The notes: generated by a model from the sequence alone, not told the origin. Positions 1,460 through 10,185 are shown, counted from the first letter of the stretch. The stretch is 39,344 nt of DNA from a virus (IMGVR_UViG_3300020138_000013:1-39344), one strand, 5' to 3'. Numbers and translations: made by a program.

Positions 1460-1632
1460 TATCGCACCACCTTGACAGGAGCCAGTTGAATGATACGCTG
1501 GTTCTCATTCTTGAATTCTCGTGCTTCTTGGCGGGTGTTGAAAATCTGATTGTGGATGTGCCCCGAATCCTTGCTTTGCAGAACATAGCGGTAGATGTTG
1601 GGGATATCATTCATGTTAACAGTGTTGCTCAT
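1459..1632 (-). CDS. Hypothetical 57-aa protein (MSNTVNMNDIPNIYRYVLQSKDSGH...KVVR)
   Basis: AAAGGAG RBS, ATG at 1632, TAA overlapping the next ATG; below ORF-track cut-off. Confidence 0.75.
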   Translation of the reverse strand: MSNTVNMNDIPNIYRYVLQSKDSGHIHNQIFNTRQEAREFKNENQRIIQLAPVKVVR

Positions 1633-1686
1633 TTACTTCTCCTTTAACAAAATTAGCCCAATGGGCAATGAAAATATAATAAACTG

Positions 1687-1762
1687 TGGTACTACCGCCG
1701 GGGAACGATCCCGGAAAGGCCCCTTATAAGGAGGCTATTATAACCAATTTAATTACGGTAGC
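1687..1762 (-). tRNA. trnI: tRNA-Ile(UAU)
   Basis: Cloverleaf: acceptor GCTACCG/CGGTAGT, anticodon arm GCCTC-CTTATAA-GGGGC, T arm CCGGG-ATCGTTC-CCCGG, encoded CCA. Confidence 0.9.
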
Positions 1763-1771
1763 ATAAAATCT

Positions 1772-1846
1772 TGGAGCAGGTAGTCAGTAACGATCTGACT
1801 ATTCTAGTTTGGAAGACTAGTGTGTATCCATAAACACTTTACCTGC
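1772..1846 (-). tRNA. trnG: tRNA-Gly(UCC)
   Basis: Acceptor GCAGGTA/TACCTGC, anticodon arm CTAGT-CTTCCAA-ACTAG, U73 discriminator, encoded CCA. Confidence 0.92.
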
Positions 1847-1847
1847 A

Positions 1848-1936
1848 TGGCACCGCCTGGATGAATCGAACATCACGGCTCCACCCCTCTGCTTTTATGC
1901 CTCAAGTTTAGAAGACTCGTGAGGGGAACAGGCGGC
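1848..1936 (-). ncRNA. tRNA-like RNA with UCU (Arg) anticodon-like loop, 8-bp acceptor / 4-bp T stem and non-canonical D region
   Basis: GCCGCCTG/CAGGCGGT + GCCA end; GATG-TTCGATT-CATC T arm; CGAGT-CTTCTAA-ACTTG arm; CCCCTC/GAGGGG encloses the anticodon arm. Confidence 0.75.
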
Positions 1937-2560
1937 ATTAGAACTTTTTACCTTGGCCCAATACCCTCTAGGGGGTTTATTGATACCAAACTTTTTACAT
2001 CTCTTTTCCACGGCCTTGTCTGAAACACCATAGATTTTTGCAACCTCCACAGTCGGCATTTCCCACACAAGGTTTTGTAATTCTTCTTTTGTGGGGTTAA
2101 ACTTCATTACAAGTTTATGTGAGCACTCAGAAGAACAGCAAACCGTTCCTTGTAGATTTTTCAATCTCTTACCCTCTGCTGCAAAGAAAATACTAAAACA
2201 TACAGGACACAAAAATACTTCCCACCTTGCACGTTTAGATACAACCCCATTCACCACTACTGAACCATTTTCTATCCTTTCTCTAAGGTGTTTCCTAGCA
2301 TGATCCTCGCAGGAAAGCAATTCCAAATTTTCGTAGGAATTGTTGCTCCGGTCTTCATCTTTGTGGTGGACATGAAGGCTTCTATCAAAATCTGGATTAT
2401 GCAACCACACCACATACCTATGTTCATACACCTTTCCTGCCTTATTTGCCAGGGTGTGGTATGGTGCATAGGCGTAGAAATAGCCATTCTTGTCGCGCCT
2501 AAATTTATGCTTAGGTATTTCCCTTAAATTCTTATTCTCTCCCTTCATATTTACTTTCAA
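1895..2560 (-). CDS. Free-standing HNH homing endonuclease with Zn-ribbon and C-terminal HTH
   Basis: YEHR...HVHHKDEDRSNNSYENLELLSCEDH motif, CPVC/CSSEC cysteines, TVEVAKIYGVSDKAVEK HTH; start uncertain (TTG 2560 or ATG 2548). Confidence 0.85.
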   Translation of the reverse strand: MKVNMKGENKNLREIPKHKFRRDKNGYFYAYAPYHTLANKAGKVYEHRYVVWLHNPDFDRSLHVHHKDEDRSNNSYENLELLSCEDHARKHLRERIENGSVVVNGVVSKRARWEVFLCPVCFSIFFAAEGKRLKNLQGTVCCSSECSHKLVMKFNPTKEELQNLVWEMPTVEVAKIYGVSDKAVEKRCKKFGINKPPRGYWAKVKSSNAACSPHESSKLEA

Positions 2561-2737
2561 AGCCTACTAATATAAACCCCACAATGACTCATATCCATTC
2601 TGCCTCGCACCGGCAATAAACACTCAGTAATGTAGGCTTTGCACCCACTCGGGACTCAAATTCGATCAGCCCTACTCTAGCCCGGACGTAGCCACAGGCA
2701 CCTTTAACTTGGAGATAGGAAATTTGCTACGCCTCGG
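2558..2737 (-). ncRNA. Candidate structured non-coding RNA between the 55-aa ORF and the HNH gene
   Basis: Stems 2726-2737/2682-2692, 2632-2641/2558-2567 (10 bp perfect), 2601-2615 hairpin; possible pseudoknot 2712-2719/2671-2677. Confidence 0.4.
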
Positions 2738-2741
2738 AAAT

Positions 2742-2909
2742 CTACTCTGCCAGTGAAAGAACAGGGTGTTTCACAATCTTCTTTGCTTCACGCATTGAAT
2801 CTGCCTTTCCCACCTTCTTCCACGAAACATACCATTCCATCTTACCACGCTTATCGGTCCCTGCCTCACGATAAATAGGAACGAGAACATCGTATTTCTT
2901 TTTAGCCAT
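2742..2909 (-). CDS. Basic 55-aa hypothetical protein (MAKKKYDVLVPIYREAGTDKRGKMEWYVSWKKVGKADSMREAKKIVKHPVLSLAE)
   Basis: AAAGGAG RBS 6 nt before ATG at 2909; below ORF-track cut-off. Confidence 0.75.
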   Translation of the reverse strand: MAKKKYDVLVPIYREAGTDKRGKMEWYVSWKKVGKADSMREAKKIVKHPVLSLAE

Positions 2910-3042
2910 CTACTTCTCCTTTCTAGTTGAAATCTGTGCCCCGTTGTGGAAAATTTGGGCATGAAAAACATTTCTGTTCTTCCTCAGCCTACCACACTCC
3001 CGAGGACTTTAGGATACGTCTATCCCTTCCTTAATGAACAAC

Positions 3043-3071
3043 ATTGTACAGCATGTTTTCTGATTTGTCAA
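3043..3071 (-). promoter_or_regulatory. Sigma70-type promoter for the RNA/tRNA cluster
   Basis: TTGACA-17nt-TACAAT. Confidence 0.85.
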
Positions 3072-3367: not shown

Positions 3368-3396
3368 ATTCTACAGAAGAATTTTGTGTTTGTCAA
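3368..3396 (-). promoter_or_regulatory. Sigma70-type promoter
   Basis: TTGACA-17nt-TAGAAT. Confidence 0.85.
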
Positions 3397-3429: not shown

Positions 3430-6400
3430 TTAATGGCATCCAGCCCAATCCTTATTGACAATGTATCCTGCTGTCAAGTCCACATTCAGTTTGTAGTACC
3501 TTCCAGCCTCATGTACGGCTTGTGCGGCAAGTGCCCCTGGCAGACTGTAAGCAACATAGTACCCTCCTCTAGGGCTTTCACTGATATCAGACCAGACTAC
3601 ATTTTGTGCATCCTTAAATTCCTGTGCCTGATCTTTCGTTTCAAACATCTTGAATTGGACAAGACTCCTACTCACTTCCATCTGTGCCTCATCGTGGTAG
3701 GCTATGAGTTGTTGTGCAAAAACCTTATTCTTCCAGTCATCAACAAAAAAGTCAACAGCAAGATTGTTGTTTTTAAGCAACTTATCATGAATCACCATAG
3801 CACGTTTAGCACAAATAACGCCTGCACTCTGGAACAAACTGTTTAGGATAGCATGGGAAGATCGGGTAGGAACTTTACGTCCATCCAAACCAAGAATAAA
3901 TTTCTTTTTCCCAACACCTTCCCAATATTGCTTCAACTTTTCCTTCAAATCTGCAAGAGGCTTTGCTGCCTCCCAGAAAGCATTAAAAACAATTTCTCCT
4001 GTCTTTAAATCTGCCCCGATAGTCTTAGCAACCTTTGATGCCTGCGCCCCATAGGTACAGTTTCCAGTGATGCCAACAAAATCATCTTGCCAAATAACAA
4101 ATGTACCGTTGTTGGTAGTGAGACAAAAAGTATCTTGGATGCCCATTGATTCCTTCTTCAACTCTTGACAAGTAATATGTTTCCTCTTTTGTGTACGGAT
4201 GACTTTGCATTTTTCTCCTTCTCCCTTAGAGTTGAATGTGATTCTGCCTCTACCCAGAAGTTGGGCTGCGGTTACTACAGCATCAAATATCTTCCCTTCA
4301 TTCTGGGTGATGGCCTCTGCTTTATGGCGATTTTTCATCTCCCCGTCCCCAAGATAGAAACCCTCATAGAAGGCTTCTAAGGATTCTCTTGTCAAGGAAA
4401 CCACCCACTTCACCCAATCTACATCATGTTTATCCAACCTACAGCCAACAACACGATCTATAAAAGGTCTTGCTGATGCAGATTTGACAGAATAAAGAAA
4501 CACCCTGTTATTGTTCGAGTTATTCTCTCCTTTCCAGTAGTCTAAACCCAGGTTGTTCAAAGCAGACTCCACCTCCCGCCACGACTTGTGTTCTGCCTGT
4601 GCCAAAACCATCCGAATCTCTTTCCTTTTCCCGAAAGAACTGGAAGTGGTTTCTGACTTCTTAGACCAAGCATAGTAACCATCAGACAACAGCAATCCCA
4701 TAAAAAAGGCTTCTTCTTTCGTGACAGGAGAGTCTCCACCTTTATAGGGTGCAGTCAGTACAATATTGTGCTCTGTCGTCAAATCCTCCGCATTAAAAAA
4801 GCCATAAACCTTTTCTCTAGGTTTATTTTTTAGTGAGCTACGTCTCCAGCCATACCACCTGTGATCTTCTGTACACTGAAAACTATCAAATTTGTTGGAG
4901 AACTTAAACACTTCTTTGTCTGTGAAAAAGTGTTTCTTTGTCACAACATCCCTTTCAACAACCCCTGTTTCGCTGTTAAAGGTTAAAACTTCCTCGCCTT
5001 CTACAATATCGGCGTACTCCTTCCACCCTTCTACAGTTAGCACCTTTGTATGCAAAGGCAGACAAGCGTATTTCACCGCCTTAGCGGGGCCACGAGAAAA
5101 TTCCTTCCTGATGATACGGGATATCTTCTTAGCCGTGCTCGTATGAACATCATAAGGTTTTTCTTTTAACAGTGAATCACAATATTCCCTCGGGGATGAT
5201 TCGTACTTCCAGCAATAGTGTGCCTCTTCCCGTGCTTCCAAAGAGTCAAAGTCATATCCGATCTGAAAAAAGCCCTCATCTACCCCAAACAAAGCCCTCA
5301 TGTTATGTCCGTACAAAGAAGTGACACGAGGGATGTTAGCTACCACCTTATGTTTCATTCTTGATGTGGCTGCACCACAGGTGTCTGCTGGCGTAGGAAT
5401 ACGGCCATCCTCCCTTACAGAAGCCATATACCCCTTTTCCGCCTCATCCTCGTCATCCCAGGACACGCCCCCACCCAAAATACTGTTCCTGCGGTGTTTG
5501 TAGGTGAGATATTCCACTACATCCCGTACGTAGGGAAAAGATTCCGATACACGTTCAAGATCAGGACACAACTCTTTTTCCTGGCCTACAGTGAACGTAG
5601 GATTTGTCTGTACACGCACCGGCTTTCCTGGTTTAAAGGACATCAACTTGTCTTTCAACTTTTTAGGACTCACCCCTAGATATTCACAACGAGACGTACA
5701 GAAGGAAGACTCGAGGGTTTGTGCTACATAACGATCTACGGCGGCTTCAAATTTCTCGGGAGACAACTTCTGTTTCTTTGTATCTACGGACAGGTCTTTT
5801 TCCTTCCATTCTGAAGGATTCCATCCCAGACCCACCAACCACTCCTTGATGTGGGTGCTGTCATCAATCGTAGCTTCAACCTCGGTCACTAGCGGTTCTA
5901 GCGCCAACGGCAACTCACGAATCTCCCCCAACACATCTACGTGCCTATCATCAACAAAACTACCACCGTGTTTTTCCACCCACTTGATAAGATGACTGCT
6001 GTGTGATCCATCTTTTTTAAATTGAATCTTTGGTGGGATGTACTCTTTCATAAATGCCTGTGTGGCCTTCTTCTTTGGAAGAAGAGGCTCTACACGTAAA
6101 CGACGCTCCTCTAGCAAAGCATCCAACTCCCGGATAGATTCTTCTGCCAAGTCTTTGTTAAAAGCAAAACCCCTGTGAGACTGGCGTGTGATGATGTCTG
6201 CCACGGATTTCTCCAGGGAAACAGCATCGTCCCACTTCCAGCCTGAAGCCTCTTGTTGCAGAAAGTTGTACACTTCCAGGTTTGACAAACAATCGTAGAT
6301 GTTGTAGTAGAGCATGTCTGCTGCAAAATGCTTAAACTTATCCTGCCCCTTCAAGTGTGGCCTAAAATTCACCTTCCTAACGGCCAGACTTGAGGACAGT

Positions 6401-6882
6401 ACATCAAGACTATGCCCACCAAAACGATCAGGATTAAGTGTTTTAGATAGCACAAGTGTATCTACAAAATCTACAGGATTACCACACCATGAATCCTCCT
6501 CAATGGTGTAAGGCATCCCAAAGTAAGCCTTGCAGGCAAGCAGGTCGTATGAAATCTGATTGTGGGCAATAATAGTTTTGTGTGTGCAGTTGGCTTCCAC
6601 CCAGGCAGGGAAGTCCTTCAATGGGAGGTGCGTATACTCCACTTCGGCATAGAATTCTAGGGTGTATTCTACACCACCAATCACTTCCTTGTATTCCCTA
6701 CCGTCCAAGATGTATTTAGGGCCATCGTAGAAGGCATACACTTGTTTTGTAGTTTTATCCACCACTACAATGCAGTGCATCTTGAAATCGTTTTTCAGCT
6801 TGTAGGGTGAGGCGGTGTAGTCTACTGTAGTAGCATCCAACAACCCGTTTGCCTCAATATCCCACACCCAACCTTCACTCAT
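3430..6882 (-). CDS. Family A (T7-like) DNA polymerase precursor with 3'-5' exonuclease and an intein
   Basis: Exo motifs WDIEANG, AHNQISYD, YNIYD; motif A GYDFDSLEAR; motif B RGPAKAVKYA|CTYG; motif C YHDEAQ. Confidence 0.95.
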   Translation of the reverse strand: MSEGWVWDIEANGLLDATTVDYTASPYKLKNDFKMHCIVVVDKTTKQVYAFYDGPKYILDGREYKEVIGGVEYTLEFYAEVEYTHLPLKDFPAWVEANCTHKTIIAHNQISYDLLACKAYFGMPYTIEEDSWCGNPVDFVDTLVLSKTLNPDRFGGHSLDVLSSSLAVRKVNFRPHLKGQDKFKHFAADMLYYNIYDCLSNLEVYNFLQQEASGWKWDDAVSLEKSVADIITRQSHRGFAFNKDLAEESIRELDALLEERRLRVEPLLPKKKATQAFMKEYIPPKIQFKKDGSHSSHLIKWVEKHGGSFVDDRHVDVLGEIRELPLALEPLVTEVEATIDDSTHIKEWLVGLGWNPSEWKEKDLSVDTKKQKLSPEKFEAAVDRYVAQTLESSFCTSRCEYLGVSPKKLKDKLMSFKPGKPVRVQTNPTFTVGQEKELCPDLERVSESFPYVRDVVEYLTYKHRRNSILGGGVSWDDEDEAEKGYMASVREDGRIPTPADTCGAATSRMKHKVVANIPRVTSLYGHNMRALFGVDEGFFQIGYDFDSLEAREEAHYCWKYESSPREYCDSLLKEKPYDVHTSTAKKISRIIRKEFSRGPAKAVKYACLPLHTKVLTVEGWKEYADIVEGEEVLTFNSETGVVERDVVTKKHFFTDKEVFKFSNKFDSFQCTEDHRWYGWRRSSLKNKPREKVYGFFNAEDLTTEHNIVLTAPYKGGDSPVTKEEAFFMGLLLSDGYYAWSKKSETTSSSFGKRKEIRMVLAQAEHKSWREVESALNNLGLDYWKGENNSNNNRVFLYSVKSASARPFIDRVVGCRLDKHDVDWVKWVVSLTRESLEAFYEGFYLGDGEMKNRHKAEAITQNEGKIFDAVVTAAQLLGRGRITFNSKGEGEKCKVIRTQKRKHITCQELKKESMGIQDTFCLTTNNGTFVIWQDDFVGITGNCTYGAQASKVAKTIGADLKTGEIVFNAFWEAAKPLADLKEKLKQYWEGVGKKKFILGLDGRKVPTRSSHAILNSLFQSAGVICAKRAMVIHDKLLKNNNLAVDFFVDDWKNKVFAQQLIAYHDEAQMEVSRSLVQFKMFETKDQAQEFKDAQNVVWSDISESPRGGYYVAYSLPGALAAQAVHEAGRYYKLNVDLTAGYIVNKDWAGCH
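4060..5064 (-). mobile_element. Intein (335 aa) with LAGLIDADG homing endonuclease, inserted in polymerase motif B
   Basis: Begins CLPLHTKVLT, block B CTEDH, LAGLIDADG-like FMGLLLSDG and FYEGFYLGDG, ends TGN followed by Cys+1; excision restores KAVKYACTYGAQ. Confidence 0.92.
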
Positions 6883-7210: not shown

Positions 7211-7825
7211 TCATTCTCCGTGTGTGGGAGAATATCCTAGTTCGGAAATCCTATCTTTTCGATAGGCACATGCCTTTTCGTAGGCATCACTCCCATCACC
7301 GACAATCCTAAAATGCTTCACACGCTGCTTCCCTTTTTCATCAGGCCAGCGAGCAACCCAGTAATCCGTATATTTTGTATCGCTTCCTGGATGGTACTTT
7401 CTATTGAATTGCACACCTTGCGTTCCAGAGGTGTTGTTCTTACTCTTACTCCTGGATTTATTGTTTACGATATTAGGAACATCTCTTAAGTTTTCAATTC
7501 CATTGCTCATTCTATTCCTATCCTTGTGATCTATCACCCTTTCGGGCCAATTTCCTGTACAGATAAGCCAAACAATTCTGTGTGCCAACAAAGAATATCG
7601 CTTCCCTTGAAATGTTACACTCACACGCTTGTAACCAGATTTGTCAATATATCCTGCCGATTTTCCTCCCCACATCTTGTTGGCCCGTTTATTTTGACGA
7701 TTCTCTGGATACCTGATTCTCCATCGTAAGTCACCGTCAGAATATTCAAGCAATTCCTTAATGTATTCCCCGAGTTGGGGAGTCTCTTTCTCGTGCATCT
7801 TGTCAAATACAGTTTTAGAACTCAT
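7211..7825 (-). CDS. Free-standing HNH homing endonuclease with AP2-like C-terminal DNA-binding domain
   Basis: LAHRIVW...IDHKDRNRMSNGIENLR; NTSGTQGV...WVARW...AYEKACAYR. Confidence 0.88.
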   Translation of the reverse strand: MSSKTVFDKMHEKETPQLGEYIKELLEYSDGDLRWRIRYPENRQNKRANKMWGGKSAGYIDKSGYKRVSVTFQGKRYSLLAHRIVWLICTGNWPERVIDHKDRNRMSNGIENLRDVPNIVNNKSRSKSKNNTSGTQGVQFNRKYHPGSDTKYTDYWVARWPDEKGKQRVKHFRIVGDGSDAYEKACAYRKDRISELGYSPTHGE

Positions 7826-10156: not shown

Positions 10157-10185
10157 ATTTTAGCAGATATTTTCCTGTTTGTCAA
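10157..10185 (-). promoter_or_regulatory. Sigma70-type promoter, overlapped by a weaker plus-strand promoter at 10145-10173
   Basis: Minus TTGACA-17nt-TAAAAT; plus TTGACA-17nt-TATTTT. Confidence 0.8.

Follow-up and report, generated by a model that had tools for sequence, protein, structure and literature searches.

A conserved tRNA-Arg(UCU)-like RNA with a pseudoknotted core in a phage tRNA gene cluster

The third RNA of the phage gene cluster described here, referred to below as the rewired RNA, is a conserved tRNA-like gene which, judging from its sequence, likely adopts the normal L-shape and likely works as a tRNA-Arg for AGA/AGG codons. The parts of the cluster, the family to which this RNA belongs, its four nested helices, its crossing helix P2 and the kept A20, C35 and U36 letters are established.

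Results

Layout of the cluster

The window, which is the whole stretch of DNA that was analysed (39,344 nt), comprises the whole of a linear virus record, 43% complete, and encodes a contractile-tail phage (sheath, baseplate, major head). The unit under study is a mosaic phage tRNA gene cluster of a promoter, a small ORF, an HNH gene and three CCA-ended RNA genes, all parts of which are located on the minus strand and flanked by a polymerase and a 297-aa gene (Table 1). The three CCA-ended RNAs proposed by the sequence-only reading are all present, as tRNA-Gly(UCC), tRNA-Ile(UAU) and the conserved rewired RNA. The family A polymerase, which carries an intein, shows 57-58% identity over 71% of its length to the polymerases of Pseudomonas phages ventosus, UAVern and vB_PF_Y1-MI (93-102 kb). 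In these three cultured relatives only ORFs are found downstream of the polymerase, the tRNAs are located elsewhere and the rewired copy is absent. The insertion in the window's DNA polymerase A gene (3430-6882, minus strand) gives weak LAGLIDADG-like matches, in line with the polymerases of phi92-like phages, which contain inteins. Between the primase/helicase and the polymerase lies another free-standing HNH gene (7211-7825, minus strand).

Table 1. Features of the tRNA gene cluster, in window coordinates.
Feature	Position	Strand	Evidence and remarks
Upstream sigma70-type promoter, TTGACA-17-TAGAAT	3368..3396	-	11/12 consensus; precedes 89-aa ORF
Sigma70-type promoter, TTGACA-17-TACAAT	3043..3071	-	11/12 consensus; predicted
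5' leader, about 125 nt	2910..3036	-	Small local hairpins (one GAAA tetraloop) and ribosome-binding site
55-aa basic ORF	2742..2909	-	Strong ribosome-binding site; small protein family
Non-coding spacer, about 190 nt	2549..2741	-	11-bp stem, T-loop-like hairpin, 10-bp inverted repeat
Free-standing HNH endonuclease gene, 217 aa from ATG 2548	1895..2548	-	Pfam, PHROG
Rewired tRNA-Arg(UCU)-like RNA, 89 nt	1848..1936	-	Family of 39 distinct sequences; pair counts
tRNA-Gly(UCC), U73, encoded CCA	1772..1846	-	ARAGORN; Rfam 41 bits; T-loop starts with A
tRNA-Ile(UAU), A73, encoded CCA	1687..1762	-	ARAGORN; Rfam 49 bits; T-loop starts with A

The unit had been described as preceded by one consensus promoter. 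Such a site is present, among a total of five strict ones on the minus strand of the window, but the description was incomplete, as a second promoter of the same quality is located 325 nt upstream. In a scan at a loose threshold 10 sites were found against 9.7 expected, and a score of 11/12 was reached only by these two, which share a 39-nt repeat (72% alike). The upstream promoter may read through into the unit. Because of this second promoter, and because no terminator was called on the minus strand from there to position 305, both ends of the unit are provisional. Three further strict TTGACA-type promoter sites are present at 10185, 24212 and 30521 (minus strand). The amount of non-coding sequence, which had been called exceptional for a compact genome, is doubtful in this respect, since a crude ORF caller, which may miss small genes, left 12 stretches of at least 100 nt uncovered in the window, including stretches of 233, 456, 225 and 227 nt elsewhere.

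A family of rewired RNAs

A blastn search with positions 1840-1945 gave matches in unannotated DNA of phage Av-05 and of Acinetobacter phages, where the layout was identical and the stems were changed in sequence yet remained paired. Pattern scans added loci from IMG/VR and metagenomes (33, 30 and 45 stretches, many of the last set being chance matches), and a covariance model, R1, was built from 35 sequences. R1 was run on 96 of the 160 collected loci, with duplicates and unrelated loci left out. It gave 41 matches, namely 40 full-length ones in 37 loci (64-100 bits, 35 of these rows being training rows) and one canonical tRNA at 32 bits; subtraction of the canonical tRNA and of one duplicate leaves the 39 distinct sequences analysed here. 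Canonical tRNAs score at most 32 bits against R1, and the window copy, which belongs to the training set, scores 83 bits. The six cultured-phage loci fetched after R1 had been trained all matched, with seven copies at 78-95 bits, and these carriers comprise Straboviridae, Demerecviridae and other Acinetobacter, Vibrio and Aeromonas phages. When the Av-05 copy was used as query, 307 of 50,697 phage records matched over 80% of its length, mostly near-identical Vibrio phages. The 26 pattern matches in bacterial genome contigs were rejected as chance (none of the 24 given to R1 scored), as was the single match of the first pattern drawn up for the tRNA mimic.

Neither ARAGORN nor Rfam, RF00005 included, made a call for the window's rewired RNA, and across 33 loci ARAGORN called one family copy, the CCU copy in locus L022. 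None of the inspected GenBank carrier records annotates the rewired gene as a tRNA. At the level of titles and the opening lines of abstracts, with subscription papers largely outside reach, no description of the rewired design was found in the literature. In the accessible part of Fremin et al. (PMC10690425), a candidate overlapping tRNA-Arg, DNAVirus_2961, is 56 nt long and belongs to Bifidobacterium-linked viruses. Four 9-letter motifs of the rewired family are absent from supplementary file 4 of that paper, and the family may stand unnamed in files 1 and 2. In L022, L082, L083 and L189 two rewired genes stand in tandem, one with a CCU and one with a UCU anticodon, which together cover AGG and AGA. 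In the cluster of Acinetobacter phage KARL-1 (L184:463-537), ARAGORN calls a tRNA with a CUA (amber) anticodon about 2 kb from the rewired gene.

Structure and covariation

The window RNA begins with an 8-bp acceptor, UU, the 5' strand of P2 (1926-1921), an A and the anticodon arm (UCU at 1912-1910). It continues with the 5' strand of P4 (1901-1899), an A-rich linker, the 3' strand of P2 (1889-1884) and UGGA, and is closed by the 3' strand of P4 (1879-1877), a 4-bp T-stem, G73 and CCA, so that its 3' end reads GCCA. The same order is found throughout the family: an 8-bp acceptor strand, two linker bases, a P2 strand of 5-6 nt, A and the anticodon arm; then one base, a 3-nt P4 strand, an A-rich linker of 4-10 nt and the P2 partner; and finally a loop with GG followed by A, the P4 partner, two bases, a 4-bp T-arm, the acceptor strand and NCCA, although some copies do not encode CCA. 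In the five copies with a 3-nt linker, the window's included, the G after P2 gives a sixth pair and leaves two linker bases unpaired. In all 39 sequences only 8-9 nt separate the acceptor strand from the anticodon stem, which is too few for a D-arm between the two arms, and a contiguous D-stem-loop is not found. The acceptor branch has 8 + 4 pairs, all of them covarying, and not the 7-bp acceptor and 5-bp T-stem of a canonical tRNA.

The pairing of these helices was assessed in an alignment (A4) fitted to the model, in counts that span related sequences and are not probabilities. The four nested helices show two-sided changes at 20 of 20 pairs, and 97.9% of their 792 cells are paired, compared with 65.6% after shuffling and 40-51% after sliding. 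Helix P2, which crosses P4 as a pseudoknot, is paired in 195 of 195 cells (170 after shuffling). The value is 100 of 100 (88 after shuffling) in the 20 rows whose search left the 3' strand of P2 unconstrained, and the fourth P2 pair swaps between A-U, U-A and G-C. P4, examined in a fixed register, was never part of a search pattern and is paired in 109 of 117 cells, compared with 77 after shuffling. The 5-bp anticodon stem is paired in 195 of 195 cells and closes a 7-nt loop with U33 and a purine at 37, and the T-loop is tRNA-like as well. Most members were found by patterns that held CCCC, the anticodon loop or G-GGG; therefore, the invariant C-G pairs and the share of UCU are biased by selection.

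Arginine identity and codon use

Among the 39 sequences the anticodon is UCU in 35, CCU in three and GUA in one. The share of UCU is biased because one search pattern fixed the UCU loop, but UCU copies, together with one GUA copy, also came from the two patterns that left the anticodon free. The CCU copies adjoin UCU copies in three loci (L022, L082 and L083). The base after GG, which would be position 20, is A in 37 of the 38 copies with an arginine anticodon and U in one UCU copy, and it is C in the GUA copy. According to the accessible part of PMC9976931, A20, C35 and U/G36 are bacterial arginine identity determinants, and A/G73 and U73 are also listed. The window copy carries UCU, GG-A and G73, in agreement with these determinants. 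The discriminator base of the 39 sequences is G in 14, U in 13 and A in 9, in a parse with some register slips. The member with the GUA (Tyr) anticodon lies at L095:1482-1572 (minus strand); the rewired scaffold is therefore not restricted to arginine.

A search of 20 of 23 records by pattern, followed by ARAGORN, found a canonical tRNA-Arg(UCU) in none of 15 carrier records. This absence is weak evidence, because only one of five non-carrier controls (T5) has such a tRNA.

The window's tRNA-Gly(UCC) is about 80% alike to an Aeromonas phage tRNA-Gly, and a UAU anticodon, as in the tRNA-Ile, is rare in bacteria. The T-loops of both these tRNAs begin with AUCG and have U at position 58 (an A54-U58 swap), and the rewired copy of phiAB441 (L008:2993-3080) has an identical AUCG/U58 T-loop. 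Counted over 38 long ORFs of the window, 262 of 527 arginine codons are AGA (148) or AGG (114), 208 of 845 glycine codons are GGA and 49 of 619 isoleucine codons are AUA. These codons are rare in enteric bacteria, from which the host of this phage may differ.

The HNH gene and the 55-aa ORF

The HNH gene noted earlier is well supported by Pfam HNH_3 (PF13392; E 2e-9, 37.4 bits against a cut-off of 24.8, motif intact) and PHROG 15471 (E 1e-31). The HNH reading frame runs into the rewired gene, so that the final 13 HNH codons and the stop coincide with the first 42 nt of the RNA, and the PHROG profile stops at residue 201 of 221, just ahead of the overlap region. The protein has 206 homologues, the best outside ones at about 45-50% identity. 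An HNH gene lies within 900 nt of the rewired RNA in seven of 37 loci, one of which is the window itself and two of which give weak matches, as found with a profile from the homologues of the window's HNH protein, which may miss other HNH classes. No endonuclease-free allele of the HNH locus was seen; in one DNA sequencing run, which may be the source of the window, a single contig covers the locus, with no variants or joints.

The 55-aa ORF, likewise predicted in the earlier reading, is present and belongs to a real protein family. One homologue, P0002, is at 77%, and the family has 18 representatives at E <= 0.001, of which 16 are 48-80 aa long. Several homologues, among them P0002, P0135 and P0148, are on contigs of 91-94 kb. 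The predicted model is a beta-hairpin, a helix and a strand (pLDDT 90). The protein has no Pfam or PHROG family, and no significant match emerged when the model was compared with known folds by Foldseek and VIA-align (best E 0.22, best Z 3.5), a negative result that does not establish a new fold. The best Atlas score, 0.81, is at lead level only. A tblastn search against cultured phages gave no match, and an alignment search returned none of 82 candidates; four weak IMG/VR loci were rejected as short chance matches. With the family profile, no homologue was found in the 24 records that carry the rewired RNA, 15 of which are cultured or at least 90% complete, and a 13.5-bit match in T5 was taken as chance. 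Two long proteins, P0130 (1139 aa, in seven stretches) and P0139 (1369 aa), also match the 55-aa protein; these sequence matches hint that the motif can occur as a repeat, and a compositional artefact is possible.

Leader and spacer

The spacer contains a perfect 10-bp inverted repeat (2558-2567 with 2632-2641). Both non-coding segments had been described as structured, a view that the folding energies do not bear out: against shuffles, z was -0.68 for the leader (2915-3040) and +0.22 and +0.40 for the spacer, and no sliding window within either reached z < -2, in a test that is weak because the true third RNA scores only -1.17 and the tRNA-Ile only -1.48. Homologues of the leader and spacer were found neither in 50,697 phage records nor in the 168 collected loci, nor near any member of the rewired family, and the spacer, which alone was searched in plasmids, had none there. 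In Rfam, searched at E <= 1 and at E <= 10, the two segments matched nothing beyond potC and ZEB2 at chance level, and inspection by eye for twister, hammerhead and HDV-like ribozyme motifs revealed no fit. Two pattern scans derived from the spacer (31 and 14 IMG/VR loci) were rejected for lack of real similarity, a 17-nt spacer lead in L011 proved to be antisense of a coding region, and the idea that the spacer is a decayed copy of the rewired RNA was rejected on comparison. There is no support for a conserved RNA in the leader, and the spacer is a candidate stable RNA.

The leaders of the 55-aa ORF and of a 57-aa ORF (2907-2965 and 1630-1672, minus strand) share a TTCAT(T)GCCC motif, which opens a GCCC/GGGC hairpin and occurs four times in the window. 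After this hairpin both ORFs have an identical AGGAGAAGTA(G/A)ATG start, found exactly only at those two places. The two leaders may share an operator or a processing signal, or may stem from an ancient duplication. Within the leader of the 55-aa ORF begins a 66-codon frame with a GAGGA site (2771-2971, minus strand), which extends into that ORF in a different frame and is probably due to chance.

Discussion

The arrangement around the rewired RNA is of an ordinary kind. In the tRNA region of phage T5 (AY543070), as in the window, tRNA genes alternate with HNH genes and small ORFs and stand behind promoters of the sigma70 type. The T5 region contains stable RNAs of unknown function and the HNH genes hegA, hegC and hegD. 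Two of these run into the tRNA gene that follows, hegC by 14 nt and hegD by 23 nt, and the window's HNH gene likewise runs into the next RNA gene. The window differs in having only three RNA genes, placed between the polymerase and the 297-aa gene; T5 lacks a rewired copy and encodes a canonical tRNA-Arg(UCU), and neither the leader nor the spacer of the window matches the stable RNAs of T5. By analogy with T5, the leader and spacer could nevertheless be stable RNAs. Endonuclease genes are common near phage tRNAs and, in the SegB case, can amplify tRNAs against tRNA-cleaving defence (PMC13096335, as far as its text is accessible). SegB of T4/T6 is, like the window's HNH gene, encoded by a free-standing gene beside tRNA genes, but it is a GIY-YIG enzyme.

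What is new in this cluster is the rewired RNA, a new structural variant of tRNA. It has in common with canonical tRNA-Arg(UCU) (RF00005) the CU-UCU-AA loop on a 5-bp stem, the T-loop UUCGAUU, a 12-bp acceptor branch, the GG-A motif and the NCCA end, and it differs in the 8/4 instead of 7/5 division of that branch and in a D-stem drawn from a helix that crosses the variable-arm helix. An 8-bp acceptor with a 4-bp T-stem is also found in the (8/4) allo-tRNAs and phage (8/4) tRNA-Ser/His described in the accessible text of Mukai et al. (PMC5389517), which have a tRNA-Sec-like contiguous D-stem-loop and a long variable arm. In the rewired RNA, by contrast, there is a 3-bp helix whose loop pairs back, and the main text of that paper, as available, contains neither 'UCU' nor 'pseudoknot'. 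The rewired RNA is also not a tmRNA, as it is an 89-nt closed unit with an anticodon arm, without a tag ORF and without an ARAGORN tmRNA call. In the tRNA-like domain of tmRNA, no D-stem-loop lies between the acceptor and anticodon arms. The same holds for D-armless mitochondrial tRNA-Ser (Krahn et al., PMC7609411, a review whose accessible main text contains neither 'phage' nor 'pseudoknot'). The D-arm of such RNAs is lost or a plain loop, whereas the rewired RNA keeps the D-stem and D-loop letters, supplied from the 3' side.

The crossing helix suggests how a tRNA core may be restored. The 5' strand of P2 together with the following A would correspond to positions 22-26, its partner to positions 10-13, and the next loop to a D-loop with G18, G19 and A20. 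The strand after the acceptor stem would thus be the 3' strand of the D-stem (22-25), stacking on the anticodon stem, and the D-stem partner and the D-loop GG-A would come from the loop of the 3-bp variable-arm helix. Because this loop supplies GG-A, G18 and G19 could dock on the T-loop and A20 could reach the host ArgRS. The D-arm would be rebuilt from the variable-arm side with the L-shape kept. One transcript would be cut by host RNase P and trimmed at the 3' ends to give three tRNAs, which would read AGA/AGG, GGA and AUA and would top up or replace host tRNAs in infection. The HNH gene is presumably a mobile passenger. As this gene ends within the RNA gene, with 13 codons and the stop beyond the 5' boundary of the tRNA, cleavage at that boundary would deprive the HNH message of its stop codon and would dampen HNH expression.

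A working tRNA-Arg has to be reconciled with several features of the family, as the discriminator base varies, one UCU copy has U20, CCA is not encoded in all copies and an 8/4 branch is rare in elongator tRNAs. On another reading, the RNA, with its tRNA-Arg anticodon arm, elbow and CCA, would act as a decoy that soaks up or blocks a host tRNA-cleaving nuclease or another tRNA-binding protein. The almost invariant anticodon loop next to a rebuilt core, and the lack of encoded CCA in some copies, are consistent with such a role, and tRNA-targeting defences and phage tRNA countermeasures are described in the accessible part of PMC13096335. The family, however, also keeps the 12-bp acceptor branch, A20 and the paired UCU/CCU copies, and A20 is lost precisely in the sole copy with a non-arginine anticodon, which, although a single case, fits selection for charging by ArgRS. 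We consider the decoy unlikely. Decay of a tRNA damaged by HNH insertion, with the leader and spacer as inert remnants, might explain the 42-nt overlap of the HNH ORF and the silence of ARAGORN and Rfam. The helices of the window copy are all intact, though; the pair counts refute decay for the RNA, unrelated phages maintain the design through compensatory changes, and 30 of 37 loci have no HNH gene nearby, all of which makes this reading scarcely credible.

The sequence-only reading had favoured an undescribed RNA/small-protein module, possibly for translation support or counter-defence, in which the leader, the 55-aa basic protein, the spacer RNA and the tRNA-like RNA form one system. A promoter common to all parts, the confident compact model and real family of the 55-aa ORF, the stem, hairpin and inverted repeat of the spacer, and the occurrence of several 55-aa homologues on contigs close to this phage in size, at about 90 kb, speak in its favor. 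Nevertheless, the 55-aa family is missing from all 24 carrier records, the HNH gene accompanies the RNA in a minority of loci, the leader and spacer fold at shuffle level and have no homologue near family members, and the cultured relatives have only ORFs between the polymerase and the downstream genes. The parts that could be tested assort freely, an outcome which the sequence-only reading had itself counted against the module. A single module is thus quite improbable; the proposal of an undescribed RNA, with translation support or counter-defence as its likely role, holds for the 'tRNA mimic' alone, and the leader, 55-aa ORF and spacer would be neighbours on one transcript without a shown tie to the RNAs.

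Beyond the preferred reading of a working tRNA-Arg, a more far-reaching role can be proposed tentatively. A pseudoknotted tRNA present in many unrelated phage families might be accepted by ArgRS, EF-Tu and the ribosome and yet stay uncut by defence nucleases that read the D-arm, variable loop or elbow, in which case AGA/AGG decoding would outlast the host tRNA-Arg; the scaffold would have been retargeted to GUA. We regard this extension as possible, although on balance doubtful.

Because no inspected GenBank carrier record annotates the rewired gene as a tRNA, phage tRNA sets are probably undercounted. If the RNA takes part in translation, its pseudoknot-rebuilt D-arm would mean that cloverleaf connectivity is not required in bacteria, and it would allow the L-shape features needed by ArgRS and EF-Tu to be tested directly and would supply a new scaffold for tRNA engineering. 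Moreover, the rewired RNA makes it possible to test codon supply against escape from tRNA nucleases, as roles of phage tRNAs, with one small RNA.
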